From a virus (taxonomy: Duplodnaviria > Heunggongvirae > Uroviricota > Caudoviricetes): a DNA stretch of 6,697 nt. Both the position numbers and the translations under genes were made by a program. A model generated the notes under the pieces. It saw nothing but the letters and a program-made list of their open reading frames with translations, ran no database searches and was not told where the DNA came from. How positions within the stretch are numbered: position 1 is the first letter of the stretch; each line of letters opens with the position of its first letter. The stretch spans positions 1 through 6,697 of IMG/VR virus record IMGVR_UViG_2671180296_000001. One strand, 5' to 3'. Below are positions 1 through 6,697 of the stretch, in pieces.

Positions 1-752
1 TTAAGGGAAAAACCACCTCACAGTATCTGGCCTCGGTGGTGGTGGGTAACCTGCCGCCGCGCCCGTTCAATATACGGATGCGCAGGATGACGCCGGACAG
101 CACCACAGACCAGCTGCAGAACAAAACGCTCTGGTCGTCATACACCGAAATCATCGATGTGAAACAGGGCTACCCGAACACGGCACTGGTCGGCGTGCAG
201 GTGGATTCGGAGCAGTTCGGCAGCCAGCAGGTGAGCCGTAATTATCATCTGCGCGGGCGCATTCTGCAGGTGCCGTCGAACTATAACCCGCAGACGCGGC
301 AATACAGCGGTATCTGGGACGGAACGTTTAAGCCAGCATACAGCAACAACATGGCCTGGTGTCTGTGGGATATGCTGACCCATCCGCGCTACGGCATGGG
401 GAAACGTCTTGGTGCGGCGGATGTGGACAAATGGGCGCTGTATGTCATCGGCCAGCATTGCGATCAGTCGGTGCCGGACGGTTTTGGCGGCACGGAGCCG
501 CGCATCACCTGTAATGCGTACCTGACCACACAGCGCAAGGCGTGGGATGTGCTCAGTGATTTCTGCTCTGCGATGCGCTGTATGCCGGTATGGAACGGGC
601 AGACGCTGACGTTCGTGCAGGACCGACCGTCGGATAAGGTGTGGACCTATAACCGCAGTAATGTGGTGATGCCGGATGATGGTGCGCCGTTCCGCTACAG
701 CTTCAGCGCCCTGAAGGACCGCCATAATGCCGTTGAGGTGAAACTGGATTGA
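1..752 (+). CDS. J: Tail tip host-specificity protein J (lambda gpJ-like), internal segment; 5' end lies upstream of the window; frame ends at a premature TGA (750-752) after a 1-nt insertion
   Basis: Frame 0 is open from the window edge (first full codon at 3-5) and reads [76 protein letters not shown]...KDRHNAVEV, which matches the middle of lambda J as I recall it. Lambda continues ...[15 protein letters not shown]; here an AAA run at 741-743 (AA in lambda) shifts the frame. Confidence 0.85.
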
Positions 753-3241
753 CCCGAATAACGGCTGGGAGACGGCGACAGAGCTTGTGGAGGACACGCA
801 GGCCATTGCCCGTTACGGTCGTAACGTCACGAAGATGGATGCCTTTGGCTGTACCAGCCGGGGGCAGGCCACACCGCGCCGGGCTGTGGCTGATTAAAAC
901 AGAACTGCTGGAAACGCAGACCGTGGACTTCAGCGTGGGTGCCGAAGGGCTTCGCCATGTACCGGGCGATGTCATTGAAATCTGCGATGATGACTATGCC
1001 GGTATCCGCACCGGCGGGCGCGTGCTGGCGGTAAACAGCCAGACCCGGACGCTGACGCTCGACCGTGAAATCACGCTGCCATCTTCCGGCACCACGCTGA
1101 TAAGCCTGGTTGACGGGCAGGGGAGTCCGGTCAGCGTGGAGGTTCAGTCCGTCACCGACGGCGTGAAGGTGAAAGTGAGCCGTGTTCCTGATGGCGTTGC
1201 TGAATACAGCGTATGGGGGCTGAAGCTGCCGACGTTGCGCCAGCGCCTGTTCCGCTGCGTGAGTATCCGTGAGAACGACGACGGCACGTATGCCATCACT
1301 GCCGTGCAGCATGTACCGGAAAAAGAAGCCATCGTGGATAACGGGGCGCACTTTGACGGCGACCAGAGCGGCACGGTGAATGGTGTCACACCGCCAGCGG
1401 TGCAGCACCTTACCGCCGAAGTCACCGCAGACAGCGGGGAGTATCAGGTACTGGCCCGCTGGGACACGCCGAAGGTGGTGAAGGGCGTGAGCTTCATGCT
1501 TCGCCTGACCGTGGCAGCGGACGACGGCAGTGAGCGGCTGGTCAGCACAGCCCGGACGACGGAAACCACATACCGCTTCAGACAACTGGCGCTGGGGCGT
1601 TATATGCTGACGGTCCGGGCTGTAAATGCCCGGGGGCAGCAGGGTGATCCGGCGTCGGTATCGTTCCGGATTGCGGCACCGGCAGCGCCTGTCACTATTG
1701 AACTGATACCGGGGTATTTTCAGATAACGGCAGTCCCGCGTCTTGCGGTGTATGACCCGACGGTACAGTTTGAGTTCTGGTTCTCGGAAAAACGGATTGC
1801 TGATATCAGGCAGGTTGAAACCACAGCCCGCTATCTTGGCACGGCGCTGTACTGGATAGCTGCCAGTATTAATATCAGGCCGGGCCATGATTATTACTTT
1901 TATATCCGCAGTGTGAACATCGTCGGTAAATCAGCGTTTGTGGAAGCTGTCGGCCGGCCGGTTAATGATGCTGAGGTGTATCTCAATTTTTTTGAAGGGA
2001 AAATAAACAGCACCCTGCTGGGGCAGGAGCTGAACGATCGTATTAATGCCTCGGCATTGCGCAGTGAAGTTGAGCAACTGGAGGATGAGATCAATCAGCA
2101 GATAGAGAGTGATATTGCTGAAGTGACCCAAAAAATCGGGGAGACAGAAAACAGCCTCACACAGCTGGTTGCGAAAAAAAATGATGAGCTGTCACTGGGT
2201 ATATCACAGGTGAGCCAGAGAGTGGATAACGTCAGCAGCGAACTCACGCAGACGGTCAGTCAGAGTAATGAGGAGAATGCACGCCAGATAGCGCAGGTTC
2301 GCCAGTATGTGGATCAAAAAAGCAGTGAAATCATGACGACAACGGACCAGAAGCTGGGAGATCAGGAGGCCACCATCCAGCAGATACAAAAGGTTCAGAC
2401 GGACACCAGTAATAACCTGAACAGTATGTGGGCCGTGAAACTGCAGCAGATGCAGGATGGTCGCCTTTATATTGCGGGTATCGGTGCCGGTATTGAGAAC
2501 ACCCCTGACGGCATGCAGAGTCAGGTGCTGCTGGCGGCAGACAGGATTGCGATGATTAATCCTGCAAATGGCAACACAAAACCGATGTTTGTTGGTCAGG
2601 GTGATCAGATATTCATGAATGAAGTGTTCCTGAAATATCTGACGGCTCCCACCATTACCAGCGGCGGTAATCCTCCTGCATTTTCCCTGACACCGGACGG
2701 AAAGCTGACCGCTAAAAATGCCGATATCAGCGGTAACGTGAATGCGAACTCCGGGACGCTCAACAACGTCACGATAAATGAGAACTGTCAGATTAAGGGG
2801 AAACTGTCAGCCAATCAGATTGAAGGCGATATTGTCAAAACGGTGGGAAAATCCTTTCCGAGAAATGGCAGTTATGCCAGCGGTACAATAACGGTCACTG
2901 TGTACGATGACCAGGCTTTTGACCGTCAGATAGTAATCCCACCCGTTCTGTTTCGCGGTGGTAAGCATGAAAACTTTAACAGCAACAACCAACAGTCATA
3001 CTGGTACTCAACCTGTAAGCTGCAGGTGCTGAAGAACGGACAGGAAATCTTTCAGCAACCCGCGACGGATGTCAGCAGGGTATTTTCATCTGTCATCGAT
3101 ATGCCTGCCGGACACGGGCATGTCACCCTGACTTTCAATGTTTCTTCATATGGTGCTAATAACTGGACGCCAACGACCAGTATCAGCGACCTTCTTGTTG
3201 TCGTGATGAAGAAATCAACAGCCGGTATCAGTATCAGCTGA
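749..3241 (+). CDS. J: Host-specificity protein J, continuation and C-terminal receptor-binding region (frameshift-interrupted; the ORF-track start at 749 is a TTG and not a real start)
   Basis: From about 872 this frame reads [45 protein letters not shown]...[47 protein letters not shown]..., near-colinear with lambda J. Between 748 and 870 the J-homologous reading ([41 protein letters not shown]) is in the third frame. After about residue [13 protein letters not shown] the protein diverges into a long coiled-coil and a different C-terminal domain, ending at TGA 3239-3241. Confidence 0.85.
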
Positions 3242-3258
3242 ATTTTATAACCCCAATA

Positions 3259-3286
3259 CGGGCGCCAGAAATGGCGCTTTTTTATT
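3259..3286 (+). terminator. Rho-independent terminator downstream of J
   Basis: Stem GCGCC (3262-3266) pairs with GGCGC (3273-3277) around loop AGAAAT, followed by TTTTTT (3278-3283), 18 nt after the J stop. Confidence 0.65.
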
Positions 3287-3307
3287 GCAGAAAAGCGAGA
3301 GGTAATT

Positions 3308-3907
3308 ATGCGTAAATTATGTGCTGTTATTCTGTCTGCAGTAGTCTGGCTGGTCGCCGCTGGTACGCCAGCGAGTGCAGCAGAGCATCAGTCCACACTA
3401 AGCGGCGGGTATCTTCAGTCCCATACTGATATGCCCGGAAACGATGACCTGAAGGGCATTAACGTGAAATACCGTTATGAGTTTACGGACACGCTGGGGC
3501 TGGTGACGTCATTCAGCTATGCAGGAGACAAGAATCGCCAGCTGACCCGTTACAGTGATACCCGCTGGCATGAAGATTCCGTTCGTAACCGCTGGTTCAG
3601 CGTAATGGCGGGGCCGTCTGTGCGCGTGAATGAATGGTTCAGCGCGTATGCGATGGCGGGTGTGGCTTACAGCCGTGTGTCGACTTTCTCCGGGGATTAT
3701 CTCCGCGTAACTGACAACAAGGGGAAAACGCACGATGTGCTGACCGGAAGTGATGACGGTCGCCACAGCAACACGTCTCTGGCGTGGGGGGCTGGCGTGC
3801 AGTTTAACCCGACCGAATCCGTGGCCATTGATATTGCTTATGAAGGCTCCGGCAGTGGTGACTGGCGCACTGACGGTTTCATCGTGGGTGTCGGTTATAA
3901 ATTCTGA
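3308..3907 (+). CDS. lom: Lom-like outer membrane protein (Ail/Lom family 8-strand beta-barrel; lambda 'moron' gene)
   Basis: ATG at 3308 is preceded by GAGAGG (3297-3302). The N-terminus MRKLCAVILSAVVWLVAAGTPASA is a signal peptide. The C-terminal half ...GINVKYRYE...SVMAGP...SAYAMAGVA...IDIAYEGSGSGDWRTDGFIVGVGYKF matches lambda Lom as I recall it, including the terminal aromatic residue typical of beta-barrel OMPs. Position directly after J is as in lambda. Confidence 0.9.
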   Translation: MRKLCAVILSAVVWLVAAGTPASAAEHQSTLSGGYLQSHTDMPGNDDLKGINVKYRYEFTDTLGLVTSFSYAGDKNRQLTRYSDTRWHEDSVRNRWFSVMAGPSVRVNEWFSAYAMAGVAYSRVSTFSGDYLRVTDNKGKTHDVLTGSDDGRHSNTSLAWGAGVQFNPTESVAIDIAYEGSGSGDWRTDGFIVGVGYKF

Positions 3908-3933
3908 TTAGCCAGGTAACACAGTGTTATGAC

Positions 3934-3960
3934 AGCCCGCCGGTTCAGGCGGGCTTTTTT
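3934..3960 (+). terminator. Rho-independent terminator downstream of lom
   Basis: Perfect 8-bp stem AGCCCGCC (3934-3941) / GGCGGGCT (3948-3955) with loop GGTTCA, running into a T6 tract (3955-3960). Confidence 0.8.
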
Positions 3961-3971
3961 GTGGGGTGAAT

Positions 3972-4982
3972 ATGACAGTAAAGATTTCAGGTGTCCTGAA
4001 GGACGGAGCGGGTGAGCCTGTCGTAAACTGTGCGATTGAATTGCGTGCCAGAAGAACCAGTCCGACAGTTGTGGTTAATATTGTGGCAACCTGTCTTACG
4101 GGAAGTGATGGCGGGTATACTATTAATGCTGAGCCGGGATTTTATGATGTATTTTTGTCCCGCTCAGGGCATCCTCCTGTAAAGGCGGGGGAAATTTATG
4201 TTGCACCGACAGATGAGCCGGATACGCTGAATGCTTTTCTGGATGCACCAAAGGAGGGTGATTTACGCCCTGAGGTAATGAAGCGTTTTGAGGAAATGGT
4301 AAATACCGTTGTTCGCTTGTCTGAGCAGGTGGTCAGTGACAGGGAGAGAGCAGAAACAGCGGCTGATGATGCAATCAATGCAGCAACATCTGCGGCGGTT
4401 AGTAAGGATGAGGCAGAAGAGCTAAAAAATCAGACACAGCAGAGCGCCGAAGCTGCAGCCGGAAACGCACAGCAGACCGCGCAGGATGTGGAGGCAACGG
4501 TCACCGCCCGTGATGATGCGGAACGTTTTGCGGGTGAGGCAGAAAACAGCGCACAGACATCAGGCACAGCGCGGGACGAATCAGTCGATGCCGCCGAACG
4601 TGCCCGCCTTTATCATAATGCCGCATCATCAGCTGCAACCAGCGCGGAAAATGCAGCAAATGCTGCACTCGGGCATGAAAATAACGCTGCCGAATACGCC
4701 CGACAGGCTAAAGACAGCCAGGATGCAGGTGCAGACAATGCGCAGGAAGCGAAACAGTACAGGGATGAGGCGCAGCAGATAGTTGATGACCTGAATGCAA
4801 CAAATGCCAGCACGACAGAAAAAGGTCTGGTGCAACTGTGTAGTGATACGGACAACGACAGCGATGAACTGGCTGCCACGCCAAAGGCTGTCAAAGCCGT
4901 CATGGACGAAACGAAAACAAAAAGCGCCACTGGACAGCCCGGCCTTCACCGGCACCCCAACCACCCCAACCCCACCGGATGA
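3972..4982 (+). CDS. stf: Side tail fibre protein Stf, N-terminal segment (frame 0); frame is lost near 4914-4923 and runs out of frame to TGA 4980-4982
   Basis: MTVKISGVLKDGAGEPVVNCAIELRARRTSPTVVVN... matches the lambda Stf N-terminus (MAVKISGVLKDGTGKPV...) as I recall it. The ORF-track start at 3966 is GTG; the ATG at 3972 aligns with the lambda start. An Ala/Gln/Glu-rich shaft region follows, then ...TEKGLVQLCSDTDNDSDELAATPKAVKAVMDET, the conserved Stf motif. The tail after 4923 (SATGQPGLHRHPNHPNPTG) is out-of-frame translation. Confidence 0.85.
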   Translation: MTVKISGVLKDGAGEPVVNCAIELRARRTSPTVVVNIVATCLTGSDGGYTINAEPGFYDVFLSRSGHPPVKAGEIYVAPTDEPDTLNAFLDAPKEGDLRPEVMKRFEEMVNTVVRLSEQVVSDRERAETAADDAINAATSAAVSKDEAEELKNQTQQSAEAAAGNAQQTAQDVEATVTARDDAERFAGEAENSAQTSGTARDESVDAAERARLYHNAASSAATSAENAANAALGHENNAAEYARQAKDSQDAGADNAQEAKQYRDEAQQIVDDLNATNASTTEKGLVQLCSDTDNDSDELAATPKAVKAVMDETKTKSATGQPGLHRHPNHPNPTG

Positions 4983-5346
4983 TGCCGCCGGTCTGGAAGC
5001 AGCGAACGCAGCGTTTGTGCGCAAACTGCTTGCTGCGCTGGTTGGCTCATCGCCGGAAGTTCTGGACACCCTGAACGAGCTGGCAGCGGCGCTGGGCAAT
5101 GACCCGAACTTTGCGACCTCAATGATGAATGCGCTGGCAGGCAAACAACCGCTTAATGACGTCTTAACGGCAATCAGCGCACTGACGCAACGGGCAGATA
5201 ATCTTCTGTACTTCAATACAGACGGGAATGCCTCACTGTCTCTGCTGTCAGAGAAGGGCCGCGCATTACTGGCGCATGACACGGCTGAAGCCATGCGCAC
5301 GGAGCTTGAGCTGAACGCGGCCTGCGACGATGGAACCCCAGAGTGA
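4795..5346 (+). CDS. stf: Side tail fibre protein Stf, second segment (frame 1); homology-supported only from about 4905 onward
   Basis: From about 4921 this frame reads KAPLDSPAFTGTPTTPTPPDDAAGLEAANAAFVRKLLAALVGSSPEVLDTLNELAAALGNDPNFATSMMNALAGKQPLN..., colinear with lambda Stf (KAPLDSPALTGTPTAPT...NTLNELAAALGNDPDFATTMTNALAGKQP). The ORF-track portion 4795-4900 is an overlapping out-of-frame read. Ends at TGA 5344-5346 just after a CCCC run (5336-5339). Confidence 0.75.
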   Translation: MQQMPARQKKVWCNCVVIRTTTAMNWLPRQRLSKPSWTKRKQKAPLDSPAFTGTPTTPTPPDDAAGLEAANAAFVRKLLAALVGSSPEVLDTLNELAAALGNDPNFATSMMNALAGKQPLNDVLTAISALTQRADNLLYFNTDGNASLSLLSEKGRALLAHDTAEAMRTELELNAACDDGTPE

Positions 5347-5950
5347 TATCCGTGACGCACACCGGGCAGGCTGGCCCCTGTCCGGGATGTATGGGTTTGG
5401 ACAGGCATTCACCAGAGCCGAAGCTCTGTCATTTAACGGACAGGCTGATTTCGTTATATGGCTGCAGACAGTCACACCGGGGCGTTATGCGGTCAGTATT
5501 GCGGACTCTTCCACGCTGCTGAAGGGGACCACGAAATTTAACGGTATCATTGATGTGATGTGGTCACCGTCTGATAACGACGAATCAGACACGGCGCGTA
5601 AATTCAAAACGCTGCTGTACTACAACCAGTATTACGAGGATGAGCACAACATACATTGCATGCGTTATCATTACAGTGATAACACCTGGACCGCAACATC
5701 AAACATGATTGTGTATGACGGCAACTCCCTGGCATATCTGATGTCCTCAACCGCCGGTAATGGTCCGTTCTCATATTACCAATACCCGGCACTTGGCGTG
5801 CCGATTATGGCGGTATATCAGGGAGAAAGTTTTGGTGAAAATGCTTCTCTGGGACTCGGTGATACTGTGCCGGGTTCCCGTCTTGGTCCTCTGGCCATGA
5901 GTGCACGGTTAGTGATACAGGGACATACGCATCCTCACCGCAGGTTGTGA
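5330..5950 (+). CDS. stf: Side tail fibre protein Stf, third segment (frame 2): distal, putative receptor-binding part
   Basis: Long open frame with protein-like composition (…GQAFTRAEALSFNGQADFVIWLQTVTPGRYAVSIADSSTLLKGTTKFNGIIDVMWSPSD…YQGESFGENASLGLGDTVPG). Removing one C from the CCCC run at 5336-5339 joins it in-frame to the previous segment (…AACDDGTQSDIRDAHRAGWPLSGMYG…). The last residues (…QGHTHPHRRL) look out of frame. Confidence 0.65.
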   Translation: MEPQSDIRDAHRAGWPLSGMYGFGQAFTRAEALSFNGQADFVIWLQTVTPGRYAVSIADSSTLLKGTTKFNGIIDVMWSPSDNDESDTARKFKTLLYYNQYYEDEHNIHCMRYHYSDNTWTATSNMIVYDGNSLAYLMSSTAGNGPFSYYQYPALGVPIMAVYQGESFGENASLGLGDTVPGSRLGPLAMSARLVIQGHTHPHRRL

Positions 5951-6063
5951 TTGGCGGTGCCGGTGAATACAACTTCCCCGGTCGTTACACGGCGCTTTCT
6001 GGCCTGGGTAACAATTATGGTACTCAGCGTGGCTTTATCGGTCTTTTTGTACGCATTGAGTAA
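5863..6063 (+). CDS. stf: Side tail fibre protein Stf, probable C-terminal segment (frame 1, no start codon of its own)
   Basis: Frame 1 is open from 5863 to TAA 6061-6063 and reads …TVSDTGTYASSPQVVIGGAGEYNFPGRYTALSGLGNNYGTQRGFIGLFVRIE, which is protein-like, whereas frame 2 ends in …HTHPHRRL. Adding one G to the GGG run at 5920-5922 would join the two. The next gene's RBS and ATG follow immediately. Confidence 0.5.
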   Translation, partial: YCAGFPSWSSGHECTVSDTGTYASSPQVVIGGAGEYNFPGRYTALSGLGNNYGTQRGFIGLFVRIE

Positions 6064-6077
6064 TGAGGAAATCAGGC

Positions 6078-6649
6078 ATGAAAATCAGAGCGGTGAAAGG
6101 TATCAGAAACGCACATTATCTTGAAAATGGTGCGGTTGACTGCGAGGTGTTATTTGAAGGTGAAACGAGTTCGTCCTGTATACCGCCATACAGGATGATA
6201 TGGCCCCGACAGGCCAGCATGTCTGGCAGGAGCTGCAAAGCGGGAAATGGGGCGAAATCGCCCCGTTCACCGTCACGCCGGAACTTATTGCAGCGGCAAA
6301 GGATGCCAAAAGGCGGGAAATTGAGGCATGGCGAGACAGTCAGGAAAACGTTGAGTTTATTTTCACGTTTGATGGCCGTCGTTTTGATGGCGGAAAAACC
6401 TCGCAGTCACGCCTTGCCCCCGTGGTTGCAACAGCACAGGCCGGACTGCTTCCGGAGGGTTTTTTCTGGACTGATGCGGATAATAACAACGTCGTACTGA
6501 CCAGGGAGAAACTTATTGCGCTGAACGATGCCATGATGGTGGCCATGGTGACGGAGGGTTTTAAAATCCACGAACGTCAGCGGGAGATGAAAGAAGTGTT
6601 AAACACTCTGGAGGATTTAGGTGAGATACGAGCATTTAATGTTGAGTAA
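6078..6649 (+). CDS. Small conserved prophage protein immediately downstream of stf (tail-fibre-assembly position; function unknown); interrupted by a 1-nt frameshift near 6165-6170
   Basis: RBS GAGGA (6066-6070) sits 7 nt upstream of ATG 6078. Frame 0 reads MKIRAVKGIRNAHYLENGAVDCEVLFEGET, then degenerates into Arg/Ser-rich low-complexity text. Frame 2 opens at 6164 and reads NEFVLYTAIQDDMAPTGQHVWQELQSGKWGEIAPFTVTPELIAAAKDAKRREIEAWRDSQENVEFIFTFDGRRFDGG…LGEIRAFNVE up to TAA 6647-6649. The ORF-track entries 6063-6500 and 6200-6649 are the two halves of this one gene. It does not resemble lambda Tfa as I recall it. Confidence 0.6.
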
Positions 6650-6697
6650 CGAATAGATTGCAGTGAGTGTTTTTGGTATCTGAAAAACGAAGCTCCG

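Follow-up and report, generated by a model that had tools for sequence, protein, structure and literature searches.

This locus raises a simple question: are the frameshifts that interrupt its genes lesions of a decaying prophage, or errors of the assembly? The window, by which we mean the whole 6,697-nucleotide stretch of DNA that was analysed, covers the 3' part of a tail module from a lambdoid prophage of the E. coli type, with the gene order J-lom-stf-tfa. Its features are listed below.

1..3241, + strand: J, 3' part (gpJ, tail tip attachment / host specificity protein), from RefSeq annotation of homologous loci, Pfam and frame restoration.
3260..3285, + strand: intrinsic terminator-like hairpin between J and lom; the stem reads GGCGC against GGCGCC, one C short at 3277.
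3308..3907, + strand: lom (Ail/Lom outer-membrane beta-barrel), from Pfam and exact protein look-up.
3934..3960, + strand: terminator-like hairpin between lom and stf, intact.
3972..6063, + strand: stf (side tail fibre, 'prophage tail fiber N-terminal domain-containing protein'), from RefSeq annotation of homologous loci, Pfam and restoration.
6078..6649, + strand: gene at the tfa position (candidate DUF4376 tail-fibre chaperone), from homologous-locus annotation, Pfam and restoration.

As it stands, J is split by two +1 insertions into ORFs 36..752 and 749..3241. Pfam matches are to Ig_J (3.9e-43), Ig_J_second (1.9e-36), Phage_Tail_Tip (1.5e-31), and Ig_GpJ_C (1.3e-37), and also to Phage-tail_3. 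By these matches, J has what the module is recognised by: Ig-like domains, a fibre domain of the tail tip and, at the C-terminus, a receptor-binding domain. Directly 3' of J, as in annotated homologous loci, lom is intact and encodes 199 aa (Ail_Lom, 1.2e-121, across residues 1-199 of 199). In the public collection, the exact Lom protein occurs in 237 blocks. The stf gene is broken into ORFs 3972..4982, 4795..5346, and 5330..5950, plus a tail up to the stop codon at 6061-6063. It encodes phage_tail_N (5e-41) and the fibre repeat Phage_fiber_2 (2.9e-13), and a small chaperone gene then follows. The latter is split into 6078..6500, with only ~30 authentic codons, and 6200..6649. A preliminary description of the window had predicted fragmented gene calls. 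This is what we see: J is in two pieces, stf in four, and tfa in two.

Indels were called by alignment to intact relatives, using a panel of 20 homologous loci, 15-18 of which cover each site. This comparison identified eight 1-nt indels private to the window. All are coding, with two in J, five in stf and one in tfa.

741..743, + strand, J: private +A; AAA against AA in 17/17 covering relatives; J is shifted +1, with a stop at 750-752.
869..870, + strand, J: private +C; CC against C in all relatives; J is shifted another +1.
4919..4923, + strand, stf: private +A; A5 against A4 in relatives.
5321..5322, + strand, stf: private +C; CC against C in relatives.
5356, + strand, stf: private -C; C against CC in relatives.
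5375..5378, + strand, stf: private +C; CCCC against CCC in relatives.
5906..5907, + strand, stf: private -A; GCAC^GGTT against GCACAGGTT, with a single A missing, outside any homopolymer.
6167, + strand, tfa: private -G; G against GG in relatives.

Hence, there are five insertions and three deletions, none longer than 1 nt, and shifted frames reach stop codons shortly after most of them. None occurs in any of the 15-18 loci covering its site. Six indels in three genes had been reported previously. The genes stand (J, stf, and tfa, with lom intact) while the count, by alignment, becomes eight; the triple at 5321, 5356, and 5375 was missed because overlapping ORFs hide it. Note that we considered whether the event at 869 was a complex substitution plus indel. 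This was rejected, since the GCA-codon allele is carried by eleven loci (L011 and ten others), and the event is thus a clean +C.

Reverting exactly these eight indels yields the C-terminal 1078 codons of J without interruption, a 696 aa Stf, equal to that of intact relatives, and a 190 aa Tfa in which DUF4376 is detected (2.6e-18). No internal stop remains, and alignment of the restored genes with those of L013, the closest relative, is gap-free. The restored frames, and gaps against L013, reveal no nonsense codon, multi-base or larger deletion, IS or truncation in the window. A ninth length difference, the missing C at 3277 in the stem of the terminator between J and lom, is intergenic. Since L013 has the same state, we rejected the idea that this is an error in non-coding DNA. 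It is a genuine allele and lies outside the private set.

Substitutions tell us how close the window is to its relatives. Only four are private (1192, 3975, 4361, and 6000) and three of the four are synonymous in the restored frames, though numbers are small. The substitution at 6000, one of the three, is 3' of a frameshift, so these changes look like polymorphisms that became fixed when the genes still had their proper reading frames. Similarly, substitution build-up without codon-position bias, a mark of decay, was not seen among these four private changes, again a small number. When the window is cut into 400-nt bins, each has 0-6 substitutions against its best local relative; for indel-bearing bins the range is 0-2, except for 4801-5200, with 6. 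Hence, the earlier statement that substitution divergence is slight is right in the relevant sense. Longer segments give the same picture. Positions 5117-6417 differ from the intact L015 by 1 substitution and 5 indels, positions 300-1250 differ from L011 by 2 substitutions and 2 indels, and positions 4700-5117 differ from L018 by 1 indel and no substitutions. Full-length identity to any single relative is at most 97.7%, and this divergence is ordinary mosaicism.

We found no related isolates with the same lesions, and the closest relatives in the collections are only ~98-99% identical locally. Plasmid and phage collections contain no full-length close match to the window. Among genome, viral and metagenome contigs there were 0 exact matches to the 45-mer spanning 5356 and 5375 (5345-5389), and 0 to the DNA pattern over the private substitution at 6000. 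Exact look-up of the frameshift products, Stf of 336 aa and Tfa of 149 aa, returned no record. A search with the restored Stf protein gave only a 97%-identical representative, in a database clustered at 90%.

We compared the private changes with those of other assemblies at the same locus. Clean assemblies (L002, L012, L014, L015, and L017) have 0 private indels and 13-29 isolated private substitutions. Conversely, L004, L006, L008, and L011, which have split housekeeping genes or 'frameshifted' annotations, have 3-8 private indels and 0-3 private substitutions. By this ratio, the window falls in with the error-laden assemblies. We conclude, from read-free comparison with homologous loci, that the eight coding frameshifts are most probably errors of assembly consensus or base calling. 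Artefact was also preferred to decay in the preliminary description, and it remains the favoured reading: eight private indels accompany four substitutions, no other lesion is present, and the ORFs can be restored. On this interpretation, the DNA beneath the errors would be an intact, ordinary lambdoid J-lom-stf-tfa module, in which stochastic one-base over- and under-calls persisted into the consensus.

The distribution of the indels is consistent with such errors. Three occur within 55 nt (P=0.012) and six within 1250 nt (P=0.018), as expected for a locally poor consensus. Overall density is ~1.2 per kb (roughly Q29). The 600 nt lom gene is free of indels, for which the chance at the observed density is 45-50%. 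The segment comprising the 3' end of stf and the 5' end of tfa holds 6/8 indels, and its repeat nature may explain the clustering there. Strains that carry it have as many as 8 copies in one genome. A segment that is multi-copy in strains with such a fibre type is probably difficult to polish, as repeats of this kind would typically defeat polishing with short reads.

The kind of error is less readily assigned. True run lengths at the eight sites are 1, 1, 1, 2, 2, 2, 3, and 4. Five of the eight are in true runs of at least 2 nt, which is not a significant enrichment (P=0.22), and 0 of the 24 runs of at least 5 nt, A8 and T7 included, are affected. The earlier placement of the indels in short homopolymers is therefore literally true for most sites, but as an enrichment it is within chance. 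The 'homopolymer error' signature proposed alongside it is not supported, since there is no run-length dependence and all the long runs are untouched. For the same reason, the window does not look like a classic case of homopolymer error from nanopore sequencing or pyrosequencing. Dam GATC and Dcm CCWGG contexts, considered as a nanopore fingerprint, were rejected; on inspection of the sequence, 0/8 sites are in such a motif. At this locus, errors in the public assemblies L004 and L008 are deletions only, mostly in G/C runs. They differ from the five insertions and three deletions, in true runs of 1-4 nt, of the window. Given this, and the lack of run-length dependence, the sequencing platform is not identifiable from the indel spectrum.

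If the indels are instead genuine, one explanation is very recent pseudogenisation. The tail module would have been inactivated and eight real +/-1 frameshifts would then have arisen in the cell, for example in a transient frameshift-prone condition or under relaxed selection in a cryptic prophage. The host does not need prophage tail genes, and finished genomes often contain defective ones. Consistent with this explanation, all five insertions copy the adjacent base (P ~0.017), as polymerase slippage would, and, indels aside, the window has alleles typical of E. coli prophages in nature. The mutational spectrum argues otherwise. Real mutation in E. coli gives ~7-10 substitutions per indel, with long runs preferred. 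Even without mismatch repair, there are 6.02 BPS against 0.85 indels per CDS (PMC8510543). The ratio of indels to substitutions in the window, 8:4, is far above this biological spectrum; at the ratio for mismatch repair-deficient E. coli, 13 events would include 8 or more indels with a probability of 4e-5. Furthermore, indel rates in E. coli grow exponentially as runs lengthen (PMC8510543), yet no run of at least 5 nt has been hit. There is no deletion bias, multi-base deletion, IS or nonsense mutation, and neutral decay has left no visible trace, since most private substitutions are silent once the frames are restored. None of the eight indels is present in any other locus. We consider pseudogenisation unlikely.

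A mixture of causes, with one or two real frameshifts in a defective prophage and several assembly errors besides, is quite unlikely. Individual indels are indistinguishable from each other, and the shared -C at 3277 proves that real 1-nt length variants exist at the locus, both of which would suit this explanation. However, no relative has any of the eight coding indels, and parsimony favours one process for eight like events. Very improbable is a localised +/-1 process in vivo, acting in short runs without substitutions, such as an error-prone, slippage-type burst at the tail-fibre end. If true, this would be a mutational mode undescribed for E. coli prophages. Finally, programmed frameshifting is known in other tail genes, such as lambda G/GT, though with nothing specific to this locus, and the idea that tail-fibre expression is tuned here by programmed slippery sequences or by contingency loci is hardly credible: runs of 1-5 nt are too short for phase variation, eight sites of mixed sign leave a net frameshift in each gene, shifted frames soon meet stops after most of the indels, and all 20 relatives are plainly in frame, so we rejected it.

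Returning to assembly or base-calling error as the preferred explanation, several consequences follow. Automated annotation of the window would report a defective prophage and small ORFs that are not real. Should the indels be artefacts, the tail module is probably intact, the assembly is in need of polishing, and ~1.2 errors per kb would harm annotation genome-wide. It had been suggested that frameshifts confined to the prophage, with every indel confirmed by accurate reads, would indicate real pseudogenes. Confinement to prophages is not a safe criterion, because the stf-tfa segment is multi-copy in carrier strains, and multi-copy prophage segments would typically escape short-read polishing. 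Conversely, counting private indels and private substitutions against a panel of homologous loci is a read-free diagnostic, and separates clean from error-laden assemblies at this locus.

In gene order and Pfam domains, the window matches the lambda-type J-lom-stf-tfa module of E. coli lambdoid prophages, and annotated prophages in complete E. coli genomes share 97-99% local nucleotide identity with it. There are differences. The chaperone is of the DUF4376 type, whereas lambda Tfa is of the Caudo_TAP type, and Stf is of a short, 696-aa type, unlike the lambda-type reference module. The receptor-binding end of J is a rarer allele, fully matched only in L013. As in the cryptic prophages of K-12 and the Sp prophages of O157 Sakai, frameshifted tail genes are found in a chromosomal prophage, and finished E. 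coli prophages do contain real examples. Genuine decay in cryptic lambdoid prophages typically involves IS insertions, larger deletions, truncations and accompanying substitutions, and the window has none of these marks.

Long-read, or other indel-prone, bacterial assemblies provide the other comparison. In long-read assemblies, 1-nt indels that fragment genes are a well-documented failure mode, and insertions tend to be in short runs (PMC12007338). The window differs from such drafts in having no long-homopolymer excess and no deletion bias. Errors in MinION and PacBio drafts (PMC12007338; also Trycycler, PMC8442456) are, like the indels of the window, isolated 1-nt changes that split conserved ORFs; they are assembly-private, occur at ~1 per kb, include insertions in short runs, and are fully mended from references.

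The window carries four genes, all on the + strand:

Start of the window, + strand: gene for gpJ (J), the tail tip attachment protein, 3' 3.2 kb
3308-3907, + strand: lom, intact
3972-6063, + strand: stf, side tail fibre
6078-6649, + strand: small DUF4376 gene at the tfa position

Terminator-like hairpins follow J and lom. In megablast searches of 5,426 complete E. coli genomes, 4,994 had homologous prophage modules. In twenty genomes the coverage of the window reaches 80% or more, and the gene order annotated there is the same. The exact Lom protein is widespread on record. The best full-length relative, locus L013 (AP025747; Escherichia sp. HH091_1A per a protein record), is 97.7% identical over 1-6595, and no full-length match above about 97.7% was found among the records searched. 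For individual segments, identity to the nearest relatives is 98-99.3%, and these relatives belong to differing prophages; this is the usual lambdoid phage mosaic structure. The locus itself is a lambdoid tail module of the standard kind, and the feature represents no biological novelty.

Between 2860 and 3150, J has a distinct allele of its C-terminal receptor-binding region. With most relatives, BLAST alignments stop at 2859 and restart at 3150 or 3179; L013 and, at lower identity, locus L002 are the only ones to align throughout. This break marks a mosaic boundary of the kind typical for host-range swapping. At 6596-6697, the sequence changes to another allele for the final ~55 nt of the DUF4376 gene plus the flank beyond it; this allele is 88.6% identical to 8001-8123 of locus L016. 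The matching DNA, from E. coli C7, is the end of a DUF4376 gene adjoining baseplate J/gp47 genes; the prophage there is a different, myovirus-like one. Differences at 6597-6634, apparently private (without counterpart in any covering homologous locus), were rejected as point mutations, since they are the mosaic junction to the L016-like allele.

To score insertions and deletions, the window was aligned both globally and locally with 20 homologous loci. As the preliminary description stated, frameshifts are truly in the sequence, in J, stf and tfa. That description counted six indels. The alignments correct this to eight one-base events in coding sequence (five insertions and three deletions), none of them present in any covering relative:

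741-743: J, insertion of A (AAA; AA in relatives)
869-870: J, insertion of C (CC; C in relatives)
4919-4923: stf, insertion of A (A5; A4 in relatives)
5321-5322: stf, insertion of C (CC; C in relatives)
5356: stf, deletion of C (C; CC in relatives)
5375-5378: stf, insertion of C (CCCC; CCC in relatives)
Between 5906 and 5907: stf, deletion of a lone A (present in relatives)
6167: tfa, deletion of G (G; GG in relatives)

The +1/-1/+1 triple at 5321, 5356 and 5375 had escaped notice because it is hidden by two overlapping ORFs (4795..5346 and 5330..5950). Against some references, the 869 event resembles a substitution plus an indel. This was rejected, since eleven loci carry a GCA-codon allele against which it is a clean insertion of C. 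The indels are clustered: a stretch of 55 nt holds three of them (P=0.012), and 1250 nt across the 3' end of stf and the 5' end of tfa hold six of the eight (P=0.018). All five insertions copy an adjoining base (P about 0.017). 'Homopolymer errors' fits only loosely as a label. Affected runs have true lengths of 1, 1, 1, 2, 2, 2, 3 and 4. The corrected sequence has 24 runs of at least 5 nt, A8 and T7 included, and all are unaltered; indels were not significantly enriched in runs of at least 2 nt (P=0.22).

Reading frames were restored by removing the five surplus bases and putting back the three missing ones. The J C-terminal frame then runs uninterrupted for 1078 codons; Stf (696 aa) and Tfa (190 aa) are as long as their counterparts in annotated, intact relatives. 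Aligned with L013, the corrected genes show zero gaps. No nonsense substitution, multi-base deletion or IS element was found in the window.

Substitutions are few. Within 1-6595 only four are private (1192, 3975, 4361 and 6000), three of them synonymous in the restored frames. The synonymous change at 6000 lies beyond the 5907 frameshift, and its frame would go untranslated in the window as written. Hence, the private substitutions, small in number, look like ordinary polymorphisms that were fixed while purifying selection acted, rather than like drift after inactivation. The sole non-synonymous change, at 3975, turns codon 2 of stf into ACA (Thr), where all 16 relatives have GCA (Ala); it could be real or a base-call error. 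Local comparisons show a stark contrast. Compared with the intact L015 allele, 5117-6417 has one substitution and five indels; the equivalent counts are two and two for 300-1250 against L011, and zero and one for 4700-5117 against L018. Per 400-nt bin, the best relative is 0-6 substitutions away; for indel-bearing bins this is 0-2, except 4801-5200 with 6.

As an internal control, the same count was run on each homologous locus. Clean-assembly loci (L002, L012, L014, L015 and L017) have no private 1-nt indel, whereas 13-29 isolated substitutions are private to each. Where the assembly shows other signs of error (L004, L008 and L011), a locus has 3-8 private indels and 0-3 private substitutions. 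Those signs include four tail genes annotated 'frameshifted' in L004 (NZ_CP169399.1, RefSeq), sparse gene calls in L008 (JAOQLX010000001.1) and a split pepT in L011; L010, from the same assembly as L011, has a split prfC. By its indel to substitution ratio, the window belongs with the error-laden assemblies. Note that L004, L008, L006, L010 and L011 (GCA_0472622xx) show deletion-only 1-nt indels, mostly in G/C runs, together with split tail genes; these are likely nanopore-type assembly errors.

The J-lom terminator stem (3260-3285) is one C short at 3277 (GGCGC rather than GGCGCC), which shortens a perfect 6-bp GC stem. It was rejected as a ninth private indel: L013 (9950-9975, AP025747) lacks the same C, so this is a genuine allele. 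The site is in the J 3'/lom block, where L013 is the closest sharer with the window.

We conclude that the eight frameshifts are most likely a sequencing or assembly artefact. This reading, already favoured in the preliminary description, is the best supported, given eight private indels against four private substitutions and the clean restoration. In strains with the same fibre type, the stf 3'/tfa 5' segment occurs in up to eight places per genome. Consensus or polishing quality may be locally poor here because reads from paralogous prophages mis-map. Confinement of frameshifts to the prophage, previously proposed as a mark of true pseudogenisation, is therefore no safe sign of it. Frameshifts so confined can still be artefacts, and this undermines that proposal.

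Genuine, very recent decay of the prophage tail genes is unlikely. Mismatch-repair-defective E. coli mutation-accumulation lines, which we took as the most indel-prone natural background, show, for each coding sequence, 6.02 base substitutions and 0.85 small indels (PMC8510543). Under this ratio, 13 events would include eight or more indels with a probability of 4e-5; an indel fraction of 0.3 raises the figure to only 0.018. Real indel rates also depend exponentially on homopolymer run length (PMC8510543), yet the 24 longest runs are intact. The polymorphism-like private substitutions also argue against decay. A mixture reading is unlikelier still, and functional frameshifting is highly improbable.

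Antisense ORFs on the - strand lie over stf (4629-5408, 259 aa) and J (138-806, 222 aa; 827-1888, 353 aa). All three are most likely spurious, being opposite well-conserved coding sequence. A gene caller facing fragmented sense ORFs might choose them instead. Many Stf homologues (phage_tail_N plus Phage_fiber_2; for example, protein records P0007, P0014, P0015 and P0034) are named 'shikimate transporter' in NCBI E. coli/Salmonella records, evidently a propagated misannotation.

Genuine bacterial pseudogenes show deletion bias, larger deletions and IS insertions. All are absent from the window, where five insertions and three deletions each involve 1 nt, and this too counts against decay. The error-laden comparators also differ: their errors are all deletions, and most fall in G/C runs of 3-6 nt, whereas the window is insertion-rich with short runs affected. 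In MinION assemblies, insertions go with short runs and deletions with long runs (PMC12007338); the insertions in the window are likewise in short runs.
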